UHGV virus genome: UHGV-1493261
Length of the DNA: 64,000 nucleotides
Origin: a virus
Direction: 5' to 3' (one strand)
Made by a program: the position numbers and the translations under genes. Shown here piece by piece: positions 4,273 through 58,889 of the stretch. The stretch's first letter is position 1. Each line of letters starts with the position of its first letter. The notes under the pieces were generated by a model. That model saw only the letters and a list, made by a program, of their open reading frames with translations. It had not been told where the DNA came from and did no database searches.

Positions 4273-4941
4273 ATGCAAGAGATCACTCTCTCCGAACGTA
4301 CACTTCAGTTGCTGGCCAACTTTGAGACCATCAACCCATCTATCGTTCTGACACCGGGCAAGATGCTGCGCAGTATTAATGATTCTTCTACTGTGATCGC
4401 CGTGGCGCAGATCGAAGAAGACTTCCCGTTTGAGTTCCCGATTCTGGACCTGACCAAACTTCTGGCCATCCAGCGCCTACCTTCCTTCAAAGGTGCCAAA
4501 GCCGAATTTCATCAGGACTACATCCTGTTGAAAGGTGAAAGCTCTCAACTGCAGTTCTGGCGCTCCGCCAAAGAACTGACTGTGGTCCCGGCCGACACCA
4601 TCGAACTGCCTTCCGTCGACTTTGAAGCGATCATCACTCCAGAGAAGATGAAAGAACTGACCCGCGCCTGTTCTACCCTCGGACACAAGACTGTGCGCCT
4701 GGTTGCTCAGGGTGGCAAAACACGCCTGGTTGCAACCACCACTACCCTAGACAACTCCAACAACTACACTGTTGAGCTGGGCGAAACCGCACTGCCGGAC
4801 TTCGTAATGCCGCTGGATGTTGCCAACCTGAAAATGATCGAAGGCAACTACACTCTGCGTGCATGTGCTGATCTACAGATGGTGAACTTCCAATCATCCG
4901 ACGCGACGATCAATTACTTCGTCGGCGCACAGATTGAGTAA
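4273..4941 (+). CDS. gp45: sliding clamp (gp45-like)
   Basis: 222 aa, GAGGA RBS. N-terminus LSERTLQLLANFETINPSIVL parallels T4 gp45 LSKDTTALLKNFATINSGIML. Immediately followed by the clamp loader genes. Confidence 0.75.
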   Translation: MQEITLSERTLQLLANFETINPSIVLTPGKMLRSINDSSTVIAVAQIEEDFPFEFPILDLTKLLAIQRLPSFKGAKAEFHQDYILLKGESSQLQFWRSAKELTVVPADTIELPSVDFEAIITPEKMKELTRACSTLGHKTVRLVAQGGKTRLVATTTTLDNSNNYTVELGETALPDFVMPLDVANLKMIEGNYTLRACADLQMVNFQSSDATINYFVGAQIE

Positions 4942-4961
4942 TCAATCTCCAGCCTGATGCT

Positions 4962-5000
4962 ATAATGTGTGGGCGGGGCGTTCCCCGCCTATTTGAAATG
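4962..5000 (+). promoter_or_regulatory. TATAAT / GC hairpin / ATTTGAAAT cassette upstream of gp44
   Basis: TGcTATAAT (4962-4967), hairpin GGGCGGGGCGTTCCCCGCC (4972-4990), TATTTGAAAT (4991-5000), then GAGG RBS and ATG 5022. Confidence 0.5.
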
Positions 5001-6948: not shown

Positions 6949-7821
6949 ATGACAACTACATTTTCTAAGAACGTGAATCTGAATCTGGCTTTCGGTAATG
7001 CAAAGGGCGACGTCACATCGCCTGACTTTGGTAAGATCCGCAATCAGGCGAAACTGGTGCTGGAAGAGACCCGCGAACTGCTGGAAGCGGCGTTCTTTGA
7101 CCATGATGTGAAGGTGGAATTCACTGCAACTCCACGAGTCCTGAAAGAACCTGTTGTTGTCGACATCAAAGGCATTATGCGCCAGATCATGGATGCCCAT
7201 GGCGACATCACAACAGTCAACGACGGTGTGGCTCATATTGCTGGTTTCGACGGTGACGAATGCCTACAGCGCGTGTATGCCTCTAACATGAGCAAGTTCG
7301 TCCGCAATGAAGGTGAAGTTGTTCCAGCGCTGGAGTATTACTACAACAAAGGCTTCCCACGCGAAAGTCTACGCATCGAAGGGGAATTCCCTCAGGCATG
7401 CATCAAAGTGGTGGACACCATCACCGTCGACGGCAAAGAATACCCGGCTGGCAAGTTCCTGAAGAACATGGCAACCTTCAAAGAGCCTGACTTCTCTGAT
7501 ATGTTGACCACCGAGCCTAAGCGCCAGATCACCGAAATCATTCTGACGGGCACGGCTACCCCAGGTCGACTCAGTTCTAACGAACATGCTGGTGTTGCCT
7601 ACGCGCCGTTCGATTTTATTGACGAGATCGTAGGATACACCAAGATGGGCTTCCAGGCGTTCTCTGGTGAAACAATCGAGAGTTATATTCCTGTGTTTGT
7701 TTTCAATGAAGACAACTTCCCAACTCTGCCGTTGATCTGGGGTGAATGGAAAGCCAACGTTCGTATCTATGTGTCCAGCCCAGTACAATCATCTATCACC
7801 CAACTGACCCGTATCGATTAA
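6949..7821 (+). CDS. hypothetical protein; possible N-terminal MazG-like NTP pyrophosphohydrolase motif
   Basis: 290 aa, TGGAG RBS. N-terminal KLVLEETRELLEAAFF resembles the MazG EExxELxEA helix. Remainder unassigned. Confidence 0.5.
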   Translation: MTTTFSKNVNLNLAFGNAKGDVTSPDFGKIRNQAKLVLEETRELLEAAFFDHDVKVEFTATPRVLKEPVVVDIKGIMRQIMDAHGDITTVNDGVAHIAGFDGDECLQRVYASNMSKFVRNEGEVVPALEYYYNKGFPRESLRIEGEFPQACIKVVDTITVDGKEYPAGKFLKNMATFKEPDFSDMLTTEPKRQITEIILTGTATPGRLSSNEHAGVAYAPFDFIDEIVGYTKMGFQAFSGETIESYIPVFVFNEDNFPTLPLIWGEWKANVRIYVSSPVQSSITQLTRID

Positions 7822-7843
7822 GATATACAGTTATTCACTAAAC

Positions 7844-7876
7844 AACAGAGGCTATAATGGCCTCTGTTTTCTTATT
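7844..7876 (+). terminator. rho-independent terminator with TATAATG loop
   Basis: ACAGAGGC / loop TATAATG / GCCTCTGT followed by TTTCTTATTCT, after the stop at 7821. Confidence 0.6.
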
Positions 7877-7889
7877 CTGTGAGGATACC

Positions 7890-9086
7890 ATGAAAGACAA
7901 AGCCCTGGACGTCCCGTACTGCGGTGTCCGCGAAGAAAAGATAAAGTCGGCCAAACCGGTTCTCAGTCCGACCCATACCCGCCTGTCTTACGAATGGATG
8001 CGCGATCGTTATCAGATCCACGTCAAGAAGGACGTCCAGCGCCTTCCTGCTCCTTGGACTGATAATCCCATATTACGCCAGGTTAAATTCTGTAACGTCC
8101 GGAGAGAGCACGACAGGCAGTCTCTCAACCTGATCAATAACATTGTCAAGAACGATGCTCTGGGCATGGCAGACAAGATGTTCAACTGCGTGTTGTTCCG
8201 CATGTTCAACCTCTGGGATCCGATCCAGGCTATCGGCGGCGCGATGACGATCAAAGAATTCGCCAAGATCAACCTCGATGCAACCCGCGAACGACTTCAG
8301 AAGTTCGAGGCCGACGGCGGTAAAGTATTCACCAATGCCTTCAACACGGGCGGTCTGAAGCAATGCCTGGCTTTCCCTGAGATGGTTGTCAACCACAAGG
8401 AGCAGCGCTTCGGTGGGATGATGGTGAATCTGATCTGTAAAGACGGTTCAACCCAGAACATGGATTATAAAGAAGCCAAGGCGATAGCCGAAGCAGAGCC
8501 GGACTTCTACACCATCGAAGGTTGGGAACCGTACATGCCAATGCGTGTCATCCGCTCCCTGAAGGCATTCGTCAACAAGTATCCAAATTATTTCCATGAC
8601 CTGCTGCGCCTTGATACGCCTTTGGAAGTATACCAGCGCATGTACGACGACATCGAAGGGCTTGGTCCATTCCTGGCCTATCAGATCTGGGTTGATTTCA
8701 CGTACATTCCTGGATATCCTTTCAGTGAGAACCACTTCACGGTTGCTGGACCAGGCTGTCGCGCAGGGATTGATCTTCTGTTCCTGAACAAAGACGGTAT
8801 GACCCACGAAGAATGCATCTTCTGGTTGCGGGACAATCAGGACGCAGTTTATGGTCCTCTTGGGTATAACAGGGAAGAATTTTGGTCTGAGGAAGAGCCT
8901 TGGGATCGCCATTTAAATATAATGGCAGGAGAAAATATGTTTTGTGAACTTCAGAAATATACCCGTTGTGTAGAGGCCATACAGCAAGGTAAAAAACCGC
9001 GCGGGAAGGTTGGATACGATGGGGAAGGACGACCTAAAGCGACGACATCTGGTTCTAAAAACCTACTAAATTTATTTAAAAAGTAA
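7890..9086 (+). CDS. hypothetical protein (aromatic-rich, about 399 aa)
   Basis: Start at ATG 7890 (GAGGA RBS) downstream of the terminator hairpin at 7844-7876. Track ORF 7857 begins inside that hairpin. No recognised motif. Confidence 0.55.
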   Translation: MKDKALDVPYCGVREEKIKSAKPVLSPTHTRLSYEWMRDRYQIHVKKDVQRLPAPWTDNPILRQVKFCNVRREHDRQSLNLINNIVKNDALGMADKMFNCVLFRMFNLWDPIQAIGGAMTIKEFAKINLDATRERLQKFEADGGKVFTNAFNTGGLKQCLAFPEMVVNHKEQRFGGMMVNLICKDGSTQNMDYKEAKAIAEAEPDFYTIEGWEPYMPMRVIRSLKAFVNKYPNYFHDLLRLDTPLEVYQRMYDDIEGLGPFLAYQIWVDFTYIPGYPFSENHFTVAGPGCRAGIDLLFLNKDGMTHEECIFWLRDNQDAVYGPLGYNREEFWSEEEPWDRHLNIMAGENMFCELQKYTRCVEAIQQGKKPRGKVGYDGEGRPKATTSGSKNLLNLFKK

Positions 9087-9145: not shown

Positions 9146-10075
9146 ATGTTTTACGAATTATTGATTTCTAAAGGCGGTAAACCGCATTTTATCAAGAAGT
9201 ATTTGAGGATGATTCAATCTTTCAAATATTCTGATGGTGACTACACTGAATTACACCACATCCTTCCCAAGAGCATGTTCCCTGAATATTCTAAAGATAA
9301 GATCAATTTGGCAAGACTTACTGGCAGGCAACATTATCTTGCCCATGTGTGTTTGGCCTTGGCTTTCCCGAATTCTGATATGGTATATGCTGTTATTTTG
9401 ATGAGCCGTGGGGGTAGGTATACACCAACGGGTATAAAATTTAATTCTCACCTTTACGAAAAGTTAAGGAAAGAATTTGGACAAAGAATATCCAAACTCA
9501 CAAAGGGTGTCTCTAAATGCGTCGGGGCAAACAACCCAATGTATGGGAGAAGAGGAAAGAATAATCCCCAATATAGATATAAGAGAACTCCAGAGCAAGT
9601 CAAGAAAATTACCAAAGGATTGATGAAAATCCATGAAAGGATGGCTTCTGATCCTGAATATAAAAGGCGGGTTTTAGAGAAACGCCGCGCCAACATGGAT
9701 TTAGAACAATTTTCTGAACGTGCCAGGAAAGCTAAACTTGGGGAACTTAATCCAAATCATGGCAAAGATATTACCAACACGTTTACCCCTGAACAACGAC
9801 AGAAACAAATAGAAGGTATTAGAAAAGCCCATTTATCAAAAATGCCCTGGGAGAAACCGCGTTGGTCTGATGAAAAGGACATGTATTGGGCGAAAGCTGA
9901 TAAATTCCTTGAAGCAATGAAAACAATGAAAAGAGCGGAAGCCCTCATGCATGTGTACGGAACAAAGGATTTGAAGGCTTTTAATGCGACAAACAGCATT
10001 ATCGAACGTTTCAATAGAGGGTGGGAACCTTTGAAATGTCCTAAATGGACAGAACGATACGGTTCTTCTGAATAA
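9146..10075 (+). CDS. HNH homing endonuclease with NUMOD-like repeats
   Basis: ELHHILPKSMFPEY...NLARLTGRQHYLAHV (HNH motif); NPMYGRRGKNNPQY and NPNHGK repeats. Visibly AT-rich codons compared with flanking genes. Free-standing between conserved genes. Confidence 0.8.
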   Translation: MFYELLISKGGKPHFIKKYLRMIQSFKYSDGDYTELHHILPKSMFPEYSKDKINLARLTGRQHYLAHVCLALAFPNSDMVYAVILMSRGGRYTPTGIKFNSHLYEKLRKEFGQRISKLTKGVSKCVGANNPMYGRRGKNNPQYRYKRTPEQVKKITKGLMKIHERMASDPEYKRRVLEKRRANMDLEQFSERARKAKLGELNPNHGKDITNTFTPEQRQKQIEGIRKAHLSKMPWEKPRWSDEKDMYWAKADKFLEAMKTMKRAEALMHVYGTKDLKAFNATNSIIERFNRGWEPLKCPKWTERYGSSE

Positions 10076-10138: not shown

Positions 10139-10178
10139 GCGCCCTGGCAAACGGGGCGCACATTTGAACTGAAACAGG
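10139..10178 (+). promoter_or_regulatory. GC hairpin / ATTTGAA cassette
   Basis: Hairpin GCGCCC-loop-GGGCGC (10139-10159) then ACATTTGAACTGAAAC and GGAAGATTACATCATG 10190. Confidence 0.4.
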
Positions 10179-13974: not shown

Positions 13975-14010
13975 ATGCCCGGTTATATTCAATCGGGCAT
14001 TTTTATTATA
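13975..14010 (+). terminator. rho-independent terminator
   Basis: ATGCCCG / 12-nt loop / CGGGCAT then TTTTATTAT. Preceded by TATAAT at 13971-13976. Confidence 0.55.
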
Positions 14011-14090
14011 TTAATTGGCATCAATACCGCCTGTCGTAATATAATAGTCCCATGTTGAAATAGTTGGGAAATATAACTCACGAGAGCCTG

Positions 14091-16836: not shown

Positions 16837-16866
16837 TCCCCAACAAACGTTGGGGATTTTTACTTT
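16837..16866 (+). terminator. rho-independent terminator
   Basis: TCCCCAAC / AAAC / GTTGGGGA then TTTTTACTTTT, after the ACP-like gene. Confidence 0.65.
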
Positions 16867-17193: not shown

Positions 17194-17196
17194 TTC

Positions 17197-17240
17197 TATA
17201 ACTTTGGGCGGGGTATGATTACCCCGTCTATTTGAAATGC
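17197..17240 (+). promoter_or_regulatory. TATAAC / GC hairpin / ATTTGAAAT cassette
   Basis: TATAAC (17197-17202), hairpin GGGCGGGGTATGATTACCCCGTC (17206-17228), TATTTGAAATG (17229-17239), then AGGAACTATACCATG. Confidence 0.5.
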
Positions 17241-17252
17241 AGGAACTATACC

Positions 17253-17759
17253 ATGACCGATCAACAAATTCAAGATTTATTTTACCTCGTCCATGATAAG
17301 TCCCACATCATGCGCCCCGGTACTGTTTCCCCTGCCGTCCGTGATCTGGTGCAAGAATTGCGCGAACCACAGACGACCACACTTTATCGCGGGTTGCCTA
17401 AAGAGGACGTTGCGCGTTTAGAGATGATGTTTGAACGAGGCGACATGTTCCAGACATGGGATTCTTGCCTTAGCTTCAGTGAACTGAAGCATGTGGCCAA
17501 AAAATTTTCTAAATCGTACGGAACCCAAGCTGTTGCCCGCATTTGTTACAAACATCGAAACAGACTCCCGGAGGGGCTTAATGTCTATGGTTCTCTAGAA
17601 AAATTTGTGAACAAAGGCGATGAATCAGAAATGGATATGCTGGACTTGGCGTCCATGGAGAAAGAATGGATATTCTGCCAGCCTCGCGTCATACCAGTTT
17701 CAAGAAAAATGGCAACAGACGGGACGATGGTTTTTACCGTATCACTTGTTACTCTATAA
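17253..17759 (+). CDS. hypothetical protein
   Basis: Start at ATG 17253 with context AGGAACTATACCATG. Track start 17232 is a TTG inside the ATTTGAAAT element. 168 aa. Confidence 0.55.
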   Translation: MTDQQIQDLFYLVHDKSHIMRPGTVSPAVRDLVQELREPQTTTLYRGLPKEDVARLEMMFERGDMFQTWDSCLSFSELKHVAKKFSKSYGTQAVARICYKHRNRLPEGLNVYGSLEKFVNKGDESEMDMLDLASMEKEWIFCQPRVIPVSRKMATDGTMVFTVSLVTL

Positions 17760-17760
17760 C
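17732..17760 (+). promoter_or_regulatory. promoter-like element (TTTTAC-N17-TATAAC)
   Basis: TTTTAC 17732-17737 and TATAAC 17755-17760 with 17-nt spacer, inside the 3' end of gene 17253..17759, 5 nt before hairpin 17765-17786. Confidence 0.4.
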
Positions 17761-17764
17761 CCAC

Positions 17765-17796
17765 GGCGGGGTATGATTACCCCGCCCATTTGAAAC
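17765..17796 (+). promoter_or_regulatory. GC hairpin / ATTTGAAAC cassette
   Basis: Hairpin GGCGGGGTATGATTACCCCGCC (17765-17786) and CATTTGAAAC (17787-17796), then GAGACTATATCATG. Confidence 0.5.
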
Positions 17797-17810
17797 CAAG
17801 AGACTATATC

Positions 17811-18185
17811 ATGAAAAAGTTAATCCTCGCTGTTGCCCTGCTGGGCGCTTCCTTTGCTGCTGTTTCCGCTCCTCCTGTCATTACCGGGGTGTCTACCAAC
17901 GGTGTTTATGCTTTCAAGGCGTATGGTCAAGACCTCGTTCTGTATAAGAACGGGAAGATGATTGAGCGCTGCGTATCAGAAGACGTGAATCGTGGGATCG
18001 ACAATCAGGGTAGCCCATACGTCCTGGACATCTATGCCTGCTCCAACGGGACGAAGTCCTTTGGTGTCAAGACCTTTGGCAACGTCGCCGTCGGCGGCTG
18101 GGGCTTCATGATCGAAACCCGCAACCACCAACCGGTCAAGACCATGCAAGAAGAGTTCTTGATCTCTGTCGGGGGTACGTTATGA
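17811..18185 (+). CDS. exported small protein (signal peptide)
   Basis: Start at ATG 17811 (GAGACTATATCATG). MKKLILAVALLGASFAAVSA then PPV: typical Sec signal peptide with AxA site. Two Cys in mature part. Confidence 0.55.
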   Translation: MKKLILAVALLGASFAAVSAPPVITGVSTNGVYAFKAYGQDLVLYKNGKMIERCVSEDVNRGIDNQGSPYVLDIYACSNGTKSFGVKTFGNVAVGGWGFMIETRNHQPVKTMQEEFLISVGGTL

Positions 18186-21110: not shown

Positions 21111-21121
21111 TCAATAACCTC

Positions 21122-21160
21122 GGGCGGCTTATCATAAAGCTGCCCTTTCATTTGAGTGAC
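21122..21160 (+). promoter_or_regulatory. GC hairpin / ATTTGAG cassette
   Basis: Hairpin GGGCGGCTTATCATAAAGCTGCCC (21122-21145) and TTCATTTGAGTG, then ACTATATCATG 21167. Confidence 0.4.
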
Positions 21161-22952: not shown

Positions 22953-22985
22953 AAAGCCGGAGTACAATGCTCCGGCTTTTTCGTT
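22953..22985 (+). terminator. rho-independent terminator
   Basis: GCCGGAG / TACAATG / CTCCGGC then TTTTTCGTT, after the HU-like gene. Confidence 0.65.
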
Positions 22986-35676: not shown

Positions 35677-35694
35677 AAGCCCCTTCGGGGGCTT
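35677..35694 (+). terminator. terminator-like hairpin abutting late promoter
   Basis: AAGCCCC / TTCG / GGGGCTT directly followed by ATAAATAA (TATAAATA at 35694-35701). Confidence 0.45.
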
Positions 35695-42382: not shown

Positions 42383-42465
42383 GTAACTCGCCAACCCTCC
42401 CCGCCGCCTTCAATCTACGAGGGCGGCGTATAATAAAACCTGCGTAAACAAACCCGAGGAACACC

Positions 42466-46162: not shown

Positions 46163-46190
46163 AAAGCCCCTCATTGAGGGGCTTTACTTC
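46163..46190 (+). terminator. rho-independent terminator
   Basis: AGCCCCTC / ATT / GAGGGGCT then TTACTTC, after nrdC. TATAAT at 46191-46196 follows. Confidence 0.6.
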
Positions 46191-46261
46191 TATAATCCCT
46201 GCGCTTATACTTCCCAGTAATTCATTGGCATTCGCCACAAATTGAAAGCGGGAACTATATC

Positions 46262-46723
46262 ATGACAAACAAAGTACTCACCAACCCACTGCACAACTTC
46301 GGTTACATTCAACTCCCTCTGGTGATCGACACCCTGTACGCCGACGACAAAGAAGAGATCTGCTGGTCACCCACCGCACTGATTGAACGCGAAATCTTCA
46401 AGTCTGTTGTTGATGTCATGTTCCGTATCGGTCGCAATGGACCTCTGGTCTACCTCGGCAAGGTGACTGAGTTGAAGACAAGCCACAACGAACGCTTCCT
46501 TCGTATCGATACAACGGGGTGCTCTCAGCAGGACTTCAACACACTACGTAACTATGTACTGATCAACCGTCCGGTCAGCCAGCACCGCCCGTACCTGACG
46601 TCAATGCACATCGACAATTTCATCACCGACGTGCACCTCCGCGCCGAAACCCTTCATGAAGAGGAAACAGGCCGAGCTATCGACACAGTCTTAAATATGG
46701 TTGTGATCACCCTGGCGGAGTAG
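46262..46723 (+). CDS. hypothetical protein
   Basis: 153 aa. Initiation context GGGAACTATATCATG. Confidence 0.5.
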   Translation: MTNKVLTNPLHNFGYIQLPLVIDTLYADDKEEICWSPTALIEREIFKSVVDVMFRIGRNGPLVYLGKVTELKTSHNERFLRIDTTGCSQQDFNTLRNYVLINRPVSQHRPYLTSMHIDNFITDVHLRAETLHEEETGRAIDTVLNMVVITLAE

Positions 46724-50508: not shown

Positions 50509-51033
50509 ATGCGCGGATTTTGTTTTAGTGAAATAGGCAAAGAACTGTCTATACAATATCCCGATCCCAACACAGACTTCTTTATCTTCCTGACCGATTA
50601 TGCCAAGAAAGAGAATATCCTCCATGTGGCAATGAAACACGAAGATTATAAGTTCTGTCGGCTGGGTGTCAAAGACCTGCTGCGTTATGGTCTACAAGTG
50701 GTCATCGTAGACCCATACTACAGCCCTATCGACGATGAAGAAGTTCTACCCGTATATGTTCACCGCAACATCAATACATTGGACAAGCATTATCCAGATT
50801 GTATTGTCATCGGCGAACTCATCTCGTATTATCATCGTGTGCGAAAGCTAGAACAGATTAAAAGTTATTTTCAAGAGGGTGTTGGTCAATATAAGATGAA
50901 TGCCCTTAGTAGTGGATGGATGGTGCTGTCTTCAGCAGGCAGTGCTGACTATATTAAGATGCGTGTCTACCAATACGTTGTGGAGCGCGATTATGAACTG
51001 GAGAAAAGTAATGCAAAACGAAAAACCCGTTGA
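50509..51033 (+). CDS. hypothetical protein
   Basis: ATG 50509 is 6 nt after GAGGAA. Divergent from the minus gene at 50459 across a 49-bp promoter region containing TTATAAC. Confidence 0.45.
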   Translation: MRGFCFSEIGKELSIQYPDPNTDFFIFLTDYAKKENILHVAMKHEDYKFCRLGVKDLLRYGLQVVIVDPYYSPIDDEEVLPVYVHRNINTLDKHYPDCIVIGELISYYHRVRKLEQIKSYFQEGVGQYKMNALSSGWMVLSSAGSADYIKMRVYQYVVERDYELEKSNAKRKTR

Positions 51034-52932: not shown

Positions 52933-53172
52933 ATGAGCAAAGAATCAATTTACAGCGCAATGAAAGCTGCCGAGTTTCTTCCTGGCGCAATGCGCTGGCG
53001 TGTGGGTAGCCTGAACGAGAATGCTGACCAGACGGATCGTATTCGTTACGTTACCCCTGATGGTCGCTCATATGTCGTTGAGTATCACACGCACGACGAA
53101 GGCAAGAAGACGTTTTCGGACGTGTTCGACATTATTGAAATTGACCCAGCAAATCAAGTGCTTAAAGGTTAA
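52933..53172 (+). CDS. hypothetical protein
   Basis: 79 aa. Followed by the long gp32 leader. Confidence 0.4.
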   Translation: MSKESIYSAMKAAEFLPGAMRWRVGSLNENADQTDRIRYVTPDGRSYVVEYHTHDEGKKTFSDVFDIIEIDPANQVLKG

Positions 53173-53271
53173 TTCAATGTAAAATCGGGGTATAATTACC
53201 CCGCTTTGTAGTAAACTGAAAATACATGCAACAGAATAGCCCTGAGGGGCGGAAATAGAGGAAATTAAGAA

Positions 53272-58154: not shown

Positions 58155-58185
58155 ATTTAAGTTCAGAAACTGTTCAATAGATGAA

Positions 58186-58217
58186 GGGCTGCTATAATAG
58201 CAGCTCCTTTTGTTTTA
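58186..58217 (+). terminator. rho-independent terminator with ATAAT loop
   Basis: GGGCTGCT / ATAAT / AGCAGCTC then CTTTTGTTTTAT. TATAAT spans the stem-loop junction. Confidence 0.55.
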
Positions 58218-58229
58218 TCGGAGCAGTTT

Positions 58230-58889
58230 ATGTCCTACTCCCTGAAGGGGCTGATGAAGCGCCCCGTCCACACATTCTTTAAACCACCCGTCGTAAAGGG
58301 GATCTACCCAGCACGAGGGCAAATCTACTACGTCAAAGGCTCCAATGGTAGCGGTAAATCCACTGTGCCGTCTCAGCTGGCGGAGAGGGATCCTCAGGCG
58401 TATGTCGTGACCCATAACGGCAAGGTAATGCTGACTGTCTGTCCTTCGTTCAACGTGGTCTGTATCGGTAAATATGACAAGTCGAAGTCCAAGGGGGTTG
58501 ATTCCCTGAAGGACACTGAGCAGATGTTGTTCGCGTTGTCTATTGCTGACCAACCAGAATACTTGAAATATGATGTGATTTTCGAAGGTATCATTCCATC
58601 CACATTATTGAGTTCTTGGATCCCCCGTCTGACACGCCCACCACGTGAATTGGTTGTGCTCTTTATGGACACTCCTCTTGAAACGTGTATCACCCGCGTT
58701 AAATCACGTAACGGCGGTGTGGACTTCAATGAAAGTCTGGTGGTCGAGAAGTGGGAGAGAGTTCATGACCATCGTCAACGACATAAAGACTTGTTCCCTA
58801 CGGTGGCTGCGGGTATGATGAAGTCTCACGGCCTAACAGTAGACCAGGCTGTGATGGCATTCCTCTGTCGTGATTTTGGGAGTATCTGA
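58230..58889 (+). CDS. P-loop NTPase / putative kinase
   Basis: Walker A GSNGSGKST; hydrophobic strand then EG (VIFEG). Immediately upstream of and overlapping the TS-fold gene. Confidence 0.55.
   Translation: MSYSLKGLMKRPVHTFFKPPVVKGIYPARGQIYYVKGSNGSGKSTVPSQLAERDPQAYVVTHNGKVMLTVCPSFNVVCIGKYDKSKSKGVDSLKDTEQMLFALSIADQPEYLKYDVIFEGIIPSTLLSSWIPRLTRPPRELVVLFMDTPLETCITRVKSRNGGVDFNESLVVEKWERVHDHRQRHKDLFPTVAAGMMKSHGLTVDQAVMAFLCRDFGSI

Follow-up and report, generated by a model that had tools for sequence, protein, structure and literature searches.

Three intergenic hairpins in a 64,000-nucleotide (nt) stretch of the virus genome UHGV-1493261 (this whole stretch is called the window) are probably nested terminator-promoter modules. 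In each of these hairpins, at positions 7844, 53186, and 58186, a GC-rich stem encloses the hexamer TATAAT, which we predict to be the -10 box of a promoter motif of the family Ackermannviridae. A fourth hairpin, at 21122, is probably of the same kind.

Judged by sequence, the window belongs to an Agtrevirus-like Ackermannviridae phage and is not from a true T4-type phage. The 4-kb segment around the 53186 site, which lies upstream of the gp32 homologue, has 98.7% identity to Escherichia phages PC3, PH4, and A221 and 93.7% to Shigella phage Ag3. The window covers the replication and nucleotide metabolism part of the genome, with nearly all genes on the + strand, and encodes homologues of gp32, gp33, gp55, gp45, and gp44/62, among others. 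For comparison we used ~45 loci at three anchor genes from ~20 related genomes (gp32 identity from 99% down to 54%) and 150 of the 158 kb of Ag3 (NC_013693). Loci or genomes of the comparison set carry L numbers, with L020 and L021 the most distant.

A first-pass annotation reported five stem-loops with a -10-like hexamer in the loop, three with TATAAT and two with TATGAT, and all five were confirmed in the sequence. The hexamer lies within the loop at 7844; at the other four it spans two closing T-A/A-T pairs plus a loop of 3-4 nt. The stems are GC-rich, 7-11 bp long, and on the sense strand, have short loops, and occur 14-35 nt past the upstream stop codon. Predicted RNA folds have energies of -12.6 to -19.2 kcal/mol (z of -3.2 to -5.4 versus shuffled controls). 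We identified two further cases, a hairpin with TATCAT at its apex (21122-21145) and one with a TACAAT loop (22953-22979). All features described here are on the + strand unless noted.

The first hairpin (7844-7868; AACAGAGGC/TATAATG/GCCTCTGTT, then TTCTTATTCT; -15.8 kcal/mol) lies between a stop codon at 7819-7821 and an ATG at 7890. Its loop holds the putative -10 box (7853-7858), from which transcription is predicted to start at ~7865-7866. A variant box, TTCACT (7834-7839), precedes this hexamer by a 13-nt spacer; it is TTCAAT in L042-L046 and TCAAT in L036/L039. The second hairpin (53186-53203; CGGGGTA/TAAT/TACCCCG; -12.6 kcal/mol) lies between a 79-amino acid (aa) open reading frame (ORF; stop 53170-53172) and gp32 (ATG 53272). 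Its putative -10 box (53191-53196) is 12 nt from a TTCAAT box (53173-53178), the TCAAT of which is kept in L004-L019; L020/L021 have TTAAT. The inferred start, ~G53203, is the last base of the 3' arm. The hairpin had been assigned to the gp32 leader, which would be correct for read-through transcripts only and not for those from the embedded promoter. The third hairpin (58186-58206, stem also cited as 58188; GGGCTGCTA/TAA/TAGCAGCTC, then CTTTTGTTTT; -15.6 kcal/mol) follows a TTCAAT box (58173-58178). Its TATAAT (58193-58198), 31 nt before the ATG at 58230, has TGn directly 5', forming the extended -10 element TGcTATAAT. At the fourth hairpin (21122-21145; GGGCGGCTT/ATCATA/AAGCTGCCC), which corresponds to Ag3 Torf131, TATCAT (21130-21135) is preceded, 14 nt away (N14), by an exact TCAAT (21111-21115). 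In support of the terminator half of the overlap proposed by the first-pass annotation, T-tracts follow the stems at 7844 (TTCTTATTCT) and 58186 (CTTTTGTTTT), and one also follows the stem at 21122 (TTTCATTT).

The promoter half is supported by a motif shared across the window. We listed every + strand TATAAT and found that the intergenic copies lack a -35 element and often have TCAAT or TTCAAT 12-14 nt upstream. It was the failed search for -35 elements that drew attention to the TCAAT box. TTCAAT[N14]TATAAT is a published Ackermannviridae family motif (PMC7283392). That paper gives motif positions only, with no mention of overlap with terminator hairpins, of an N12-15 spacer range, or of nesting in loops. 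Exact matches to TCAAT-N12-14-TATAAT occur eight times in the window, all on the + strand (0.09 expected). Allowing at most one mismatch yields 18 matches on the + strand and 2 on the - strand (2.06 in shuffles). Of the 18, 14 are intergenic and lie 37-107 nt 5' of a start codon, except for two with an unreliable gene-model start. The histogram of box-to-TATAAT spacing, for the window and for 47 nonidentical instances in related loci, has a sharp peak at N12-15 on the coding strand only and is otherwise empty. The original description of the motif was reportedly in the 'Viunalikevirus' genus proposal of Adriaenssens et al. (2012, Arch Virol).

In Ag3, 10 exact matches were found where 0.29 are expected, all co-oriented with downstream genes. 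None lies inside the late structural gene block (100-134 kb), and one is at its edge (134997). Both boxes are conserved at orthologous sites across genera. The sites at 53191 (N12; 53173-53196) and 58193 (exact N14; 58173-58198) belong to the TCAAT class, the latter as an exact match to the published motif, and the 7853 site is a TTCACT-N13 variant (7834-7858). Sites at 42409 and 52001 are also instances of the published motif. Membership of 17195 and 17753 (TCTAT-N14...TATGAT, two mismatches in total) is doubtful. The TCAAT box lies at about -31 to -27, and is thus not a canonical sigma-70 -35 element, as a position near -30 is too close to the -10. An integration host factor (IHF)-like reading of the ATCAA within the box was rejected by inspection, given a misfit at most sites.

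Could the loops simply be compositional accidents in plain intrinsic terminators? AT-rich apices closed by T-A/A-T pairs would readily give TATNAT, and several loops in the Ag3 terminator list are TAT rich (TATCAT twice, TATATA, TATATT). We therefore compared loop hexamer frequency with two backgrounds, using an inventory of 25 intergenic GC-rich hairpins on the + strand (378 hexamer positions). The 7844 hairpin was missing from this inventory due to a miscalled gene start, which placed the start of the 7890 gene at the ATG inside the loop. Given the window-wide density of TATAAT, 0.15 such hairpins would be expected against the three observed (P(>=3) = 5e-4); given the intergenic density, 0.56 would be (P = 0.02). 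The excess over chance noted in the first-pass annotation is therefore real, though modest when the enrichment of TATAAT in intergenic regions is taken into account, and the test is post hoc. The 16-mer GGGGTAT[A/G]ATTACCCC occurs at 53186, 17209, and 17765 (three copies versus 0.04 expected), and hairpins that carry this common cassette core are not independent events.

Conservation separates these sites from ordinary terminators. At 7844 most lineages are identical and TATAAT is kept in ~20 of 22 orthologues. In L036/L039 the stem is GAGGAGC/GCTCCTC rather than CAGAGGC/GCCTCTG, a difference of three compensatory pairs, and the loop TATAAT, upstream TCAAT, and downstream T-tract are all retained. 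These pairs were read directly rather than column-wise, since one extra nt in the L036/L039 loop displaces the 3' arm. The pattern indicates that the pairing, the loop hexamer, and the box are each under selection. At 58186 all lineages retain the hairpin, TGcTATAAT, and TCAAT, with TATAAT in 17 of 18 and two G.U-type variants in the stem. Ten other terminator-like hairpins of the window served as controls; their stems persist, but their loops vary freely, some by exact inversion.

Exact loop inversions with unchanged stems were observed as aaac to gttt (16837-16856), attta to taaat (10139-10159), tacaatg to cattgta (22953-22979), and tatgatta to taatcata (17765-17786). Their occurrence between related phages suggests frequent palindrome-mediated loop flipping. 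Inversion of a loop should be neutral for an RNA hairpin and fatal for a -10 box, so conservation of orientation distinguishes promoter loops from control loops. An accidental origin fits the TACAAT loop at 22953, which is probably a chance occurrence because it is inverted in Ag3. It also fits 17765, where TATGATTA becomes TAATCATA, an exact inversion, or TATCTTTG in relatives, as in the controls. However, it is an unlikely explanation for 7844, 53186, and 58186, where the hexamer, unlike the drifting control loops, keeps its sequence and orientation and where the family box is present at N12-15 in every case. Furthermore, the hexamer outlives complete replacement of the stem at 7844 and loss of the stem at gp32. 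At these three hairpins, the conserved hexamer orientation, the family box at the right distance, and the compensatory and G.U stem changes all favor the proposed overlap of a terminator with a -10 element.

The gp32 site is informative regarding the second possibility raised by the first-pass annotation, that an extruded or single-stranded hairpin presents the -10 box, as in N4 early promoters or the single-stranded DNA (ssDNA) promoters of plasmids (e.g., Frpo). Agtrevirus-like and Limestonevirus-like genomes keep CGGGGTATAATTACCCCG at this site, and L018/L019 have GCGGGGGTATAATTACTCCCGC, with N14 and a stem that is longer and includes a G.U pair. In ten Kuttervirus-like loci the sequence is CGCAGTATAATTACACCG and the stable hairpin is gone (-2.8 kcal/mol, z ~0), yet TCAAT-N12-GTATAATTAC is unchanged. 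Overall, GTATAATTAC is invariant in 19 of 19 aligned orthologues of the site, including those without a stem. The promoter motif is therefore independent of the hairpin. The motif also persists without any hairpin at 14040, 36480, and 52021 in the window.

Other observations point the same way. Single-sided stem substitutions produce G.U in 20 cases and A.C in 6, a bias that is expected for pairing of sense-strand RNA and unfavorable for a two-stranded cruciform, where G.T variants in one arm leave A.C mismatches in the complementary one. No virion or other phage RNA polymerase is annotated in the 150 of 158 kb of Ag3 that were compared. Frpo-type promoters are long imperfect hairpins in which the -35 and -10 are reconstituted as duplex, so their boxes are in the stem rather than in the loop. 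By comparison, the 7-11 bp GC-rich stems here lack promoter boxes and leave the -10 in the unpaired apex. A structure-dependent promoter would account for -10-in-loop palindromes at at least four loci and in distant lineages. The stems of 7-9 bp and loops of 3-7 nt are near the sizes of N4 hairpins, and a short hairpin is associated with the promoter in N4, in Frpo, and here. In addition, the phage DNA is reportedly hypermodified (PMC5889632). Given a hairpin that is dispensable and variable in register, we nevertheless consider this mechanism very improbable.

Five hairpin registers were distinguished within the one promoter class. In the first, the hairpin surrounds the -10 (7853, 21130, 53191, 58193, and Ag3 148144, which is AGGGGGA-TATAAT-TCCCCCT, 3' of the DNA polymerase gene). 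In the second, the upstream box is in the loop and the -10 lies just past the stem (42402-42434 and 46163-46196). Here, a terminator hairpin upstream of nrdA (42402-42428; Ag3 Torf095) has TTCAAT in its loop (42409-42414), and TATAAT (42429-42434) abuts its 3' arm. The other member (AAAGCCCCTC/ATT/GAGGGGCTTT) has a box-like TCATT at its apex (box 46171; TCAAT in relatives), with TATAAT (46191-46196) 5 nt past the stem. In the third, the hairpin is just downstream of the -10 (hairpins 4972, 39175, and 10139, for promoters 4961, 39161, and 10116). An example is 4941-4989, where ATCAAT-N14-TGcTATAAT (4941-4966) precedes GGCGGGG/CGTT/CCCCGCC (4972-4989), a counter-example to any fixed geometry. 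In the fourth, the hairpin is upstream of the whole promoter (13977-13999), and in the fifth it is absent (36480 and 52021). As the register varies, hairpin structure is not what presents the -10. Constant across registers is that GC-rich arms never overlap AT-rich boxes.

A possibly related arrangement was seen with late-type promoters. In L020/L021 a gp32-leader hairpin at ~9905-9925 (GCGGGTA/TAAATA/TATCCGC) holds TATAAATA, the T4 late-promoter consensus, at its apex, and a terminator of the window (35677-35694) runs straight into CTTATAAATA (to 35701). Nesting of this kind may extend to late-type promoter boxes.

Inverted repeats centered on a -10 could also be operators, bound by a dimeric regulator of phage or host origin that switches the promoters off or on. 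Putative regulators are annotated in relatives, and the GGGGTAT[A/G]ATTACCCC core is common to three sites. However, the half-sites of 7844, 58186, 21122, and 53186 are wholly different, and in L036/L039 they have been swapped for unrelated but complementary sequences. Substitutions that favor G.U pairing over sequence identity, and T-tracts downstream of the stems, also argue for an RNA-level role. An operator function thus seems highly unlikely.

Overall, nested terminator-promoter modules probably best explain the hairpins at 7844, 53186, and 58186. In such a module, the GC-rich stem and downstream T-tract would act in the RNA, ending or attenuating transcripts that arrive from the upstream gene. 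The palindrome would also act in the DNA, its AT-rich apex serving as the -10 of TTCAAT-N12-15-TATAAT, with the upstream box just 5' of the stem. With the -10 at -12 to -7, transcription would start ~7 nt further on, where the 3' arm ends (~G53203, 58203-58206, and 7865-7866). A new transcript starting there would lack the 5' arm, and so would be unable to form the terminator. The module could thereby insulate neighboring genes within 50-100 nt of intergenic space. A box would fall in the loop because a GC-rich stem cannot overlap an AT-rich box when terminator and promoter are compressed together. Predicted 5' untranslated regions (UTRs) are ~25-30 nt at four of five sites and ~69 nt for gp32.

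Several points weigh against this interpretation. Canonical -35 elements, sought 16-18 nt upstream, match at no more than three of six positions at every hairpin site, and a sigma-70 consensus scan did not call the hairpin-site promoters. The -10 is an exact TATAAT at 7853, 53191, and 58193, but a good -35 is lacking throughout, and TGn occurs at just 58193 and 4961. The enrichment test is post hoc and yields only P ~0.02 versus the intergenic background. The orthologues are kin and the 58186 stem is nearly invariant, so the conservation counts are not independent events. The Kuttervirus-like gp32 loci have lost the stable stem. The hairpins at 4972, 39175, and 10139 lie inside predicted transcripts, which does not fit the logic of terminator escape. 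The 53186 hairpin may be an attenuator or stability element rather than an efficient terminator, because its T-tract is weak (CTTTGT) and is absent in L018 (CTGTGAAAG). Finally, the literature searched contains no data on transcript 5' or 3' ends (transcription start sites, RNA-seq, or Term-seq) for any Ackermannviridae. For this reason, whereas the structures, the motif statistics, and the patterns of conservation and covariation are observed directly, we infer the promoter and terminator activities, the start sites, and the form of polymerase or factor that reads the TCAAT box.

Some of these points raise the alternative that the promoter is real and the hairpins act mainly as elements for RNA 3'-end stability or processing, or as partial attenuators, especially at 53186, 17207, and 17765. 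The T-tracts at these sites are weak (CTTTGT, TCTATTTG, and CATTTG, respectively), and both the L018 hairpin that lacks a T-tract and the hairpins within predicted transcripts are consistent with such a role. This explanation appears unlikely given the good T-tracts at 7844, 58186, and 21122 and the fact that all were scored as rho-independent terminators by the authors of the Ag3 genome, although the two roles look alike in sequence.

The components of the proposed nested modules, the family promoter motif and the annotated terminators, are already known. Table S2 of the Ag3 (phiSboM-AG3) genome report gives the orthologues of these hairpins as the rho-independent terminators Torf075 (cggggtataattaccccgctttgt), Torf069, Torf131, and Torf138 (Anany et al. 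2011, PMC3121705). Torf075 is the orthologue of the 53186 hairpin and Torf069 of the 58186 hairpin; the Torf138 stem, GGCGAGG/CCTCGCC, is a further instance of pairing maintained in evolution. Promoter Porf067 ('TTcAatagatgaaggggcTGcTATAAT', TTcAat...TGcTATAAT) overlaps the coordinates of Torf069, and Porf237 is the -10-in-loop site at 148144 (PMC3121705). Thus, dual terminator and promoter annotations are present in the Ag3 tables, with the overlap uncommented. The promoter calls there followed a TTGACA-N15-18-TATAAT model and do not include those of gp32 and 7844 (PMC3121705). What may be new here is the nesting rule and the evidence from loop orientation.

The modules resemble the promoter-early stem-loops (PeSLs) of the T4-type phages RB49/phi1, PST/T4, and nt-1/KVP40 (Arbiol et al. 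2010, PMC2839356; Comeau et al. 2014, PMC4122927). In both, a compact intergenic cassette unites a promoter, a Shine-Dalgarno sequence, and a start codon with a terminator in the form of a GC-rich stem-loop, in many cases G(n)-loop-C(n). Both are repeated across the nonstructural part of the genome, with duplicated copies that flank variable ORFs. However, the PeSL stem-loop is upstream of an AT-rich region and the -35/-10, whereas in the present modules the -10 or the upstream box lies within the hairpin. Also, the motif here is TTCAAT-N12-15-TATAAT rather than TTGACA-N17-TATAAT, and the phages are Ackermannviridae rather than T4 type. Membership in the PeSL class was rejected on the geometry of the stem-loop relative to the -35/-10.

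A duplicated cassette spans 17195-17813 and shows the indel signature described for PeSLs of T4-type phages. Direct repeats of ~60 nt (17195-17255 and 17750-17813) each consist of a box-like TCTATAA, a hairpin, ATTTGAAA, a Shine-Dalgarno sequence, and an ATG. Between them is a 168-aa ORF (17253-17759) found in just three related genomes and absent in Ag3. Ag3 has a single hybrid cassette, the left half of which matches the first copy and the right half the second. The left hairpin (17207-17228; GGCGGGGTA/TGAT/TACCCCGTC) contains TATGAT at 17214-17219, N14 from TCTAT at 17195-17199. The right hairpin (17765-17786) contains TATGAT at 17772-17777, with TCTAT at 17753. Their common form is GGCGGGGTA/TGAT/TACCCCG(T/C)C. 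Both TATGAT hairpins are present as first annotated, but it is doubtful that either has a promoter role. In relatives, the loop at 17765 is either a different sequence or the exact inverse. About 20 loci retain the TGAT loop of 17207 on varied stems, a count made unreliable by cross-matching of paralogues.

In L024 the next gene also starts with MTDQ..., a hint that small paralogous genes are arrayed here in tandem. Several hairpins are followed by a translation-initiation module of ATTTGAAA, ~3-6 nt, and (A/G)GGAACTATA(C/T)CATG (4990-5000, 17229-17255, 17787-17813, and 46235-46264). This common module indicates that whole intergenic cassettes, and not hairpins alone, may have been copied.

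The promoters can also be compared with T4 middle promoters, which have a MotA box, (a/t)(a/t)(a/t)TGCTT(t/c)A, near -30, a TAnnnT -10, and activation via MotA/AsiA sigma appropriation (in part after PMC2988021). As in T4, there is a good -10, no -35, and a box at the position of the MotA box. The genes that follow make up the classic T4 "middle" set for replication and nucleotide metabolism (gp32, clamp loader, nrdA, and the thymidylate synthase operon). The box here is TCAAT and not TGCTT, so just its position is analogous. No MotA or AsiA homologue was found among the Ag3 annotations for 1-150 kb. A candidate T4 MotA box, TGCTTA at 53159-53164, was rejected because its distance from the -10, 26 nt, is too great.

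Two other promoter features were identified in the window. A second published family motif, CTAAATACCCC, has an exact copy at 2003-2013 that overlaps the stop of the ORF at 1260-2006, just 5' of the helicase gene. A perfect sigma-70 consensus (TTGACA-N16-TATAAT, 12/12) occurs on the - strand at 50645-50672, directed toward the gp26 baseplate hub gene. It lies in a divergent intergenic region at ~50.5 kb and is the sole canonical consensus promoter in a scan of 44-64 kb.

The leader of gp32 contains a separate RNA element. From predicted start to ATG, the leader is overall no more stable than shuffled sequences (z = -0.02), and an Rfam scan of the whole window yielded no family that reached its gathering score. 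A small hairpin, GCCC/UGAG/GGGC (53239-53250, in 53232-53262), lies directly 5' of the Shine-Dalgarno sequence in the form ACAGAATAGCC(C)-tetraloop-(G)GGCGGA. All lineages, down to 54% gp32 identity, retain this element, with loops UGAG, CGAG, GAAG, CCUG, and UUAU, and it is duplicated in L020/L021. This is a candidate translational operator for gp32 autoregulation, unlike the pseudoknot of T4.

The comparison set also provides evidence regarding genome exchange. L004 and L033 are the same IMG/VR contig (3300045988_107072), in which gp32 is 99% identical to that of the window and the protein of gene 7890-9086 is just 76% identical; other contigs have the reverse pattern. This mismatch indicates probable mosaic recombination among co-circulating Ackermannviridae.

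If nested terminator-promoter modules are confirmed as the correct interpretation, an intergenic GC-rich hairpin with TATAAT or TCAAT at its apex is likely to hold half of a family promoter motif, and coinciding terminator and promoter calls are therefore no annotation conflict. Conservation of loop orientation across relatives served here as a cheap computational test for DNA-level function hidden in RNA structure. A terminator and a promoter may be compressible to ~45 nt, useful for compact synthetic insulators and for engineering of Ackermannviridae biocontrol phages. The factor that recognizes these -35-less promoters with a box near -30 now has well-defined test sites.

A more speculative possibility, to which we assign little probability, is that nesting is itself a regulatory device. 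On hypermodified, supercoiled DNA the palindrome might extrude or breathe, leaving the -10 premelted, while a phage factor reads TCAAT near -30. If true, this would be an analogue of MotA/AsiA-like sigma appropriation in a family without a MotA/AsiA homologue, and it would mechanically couple termination and initiation at the same ~25 bp, switched in time.

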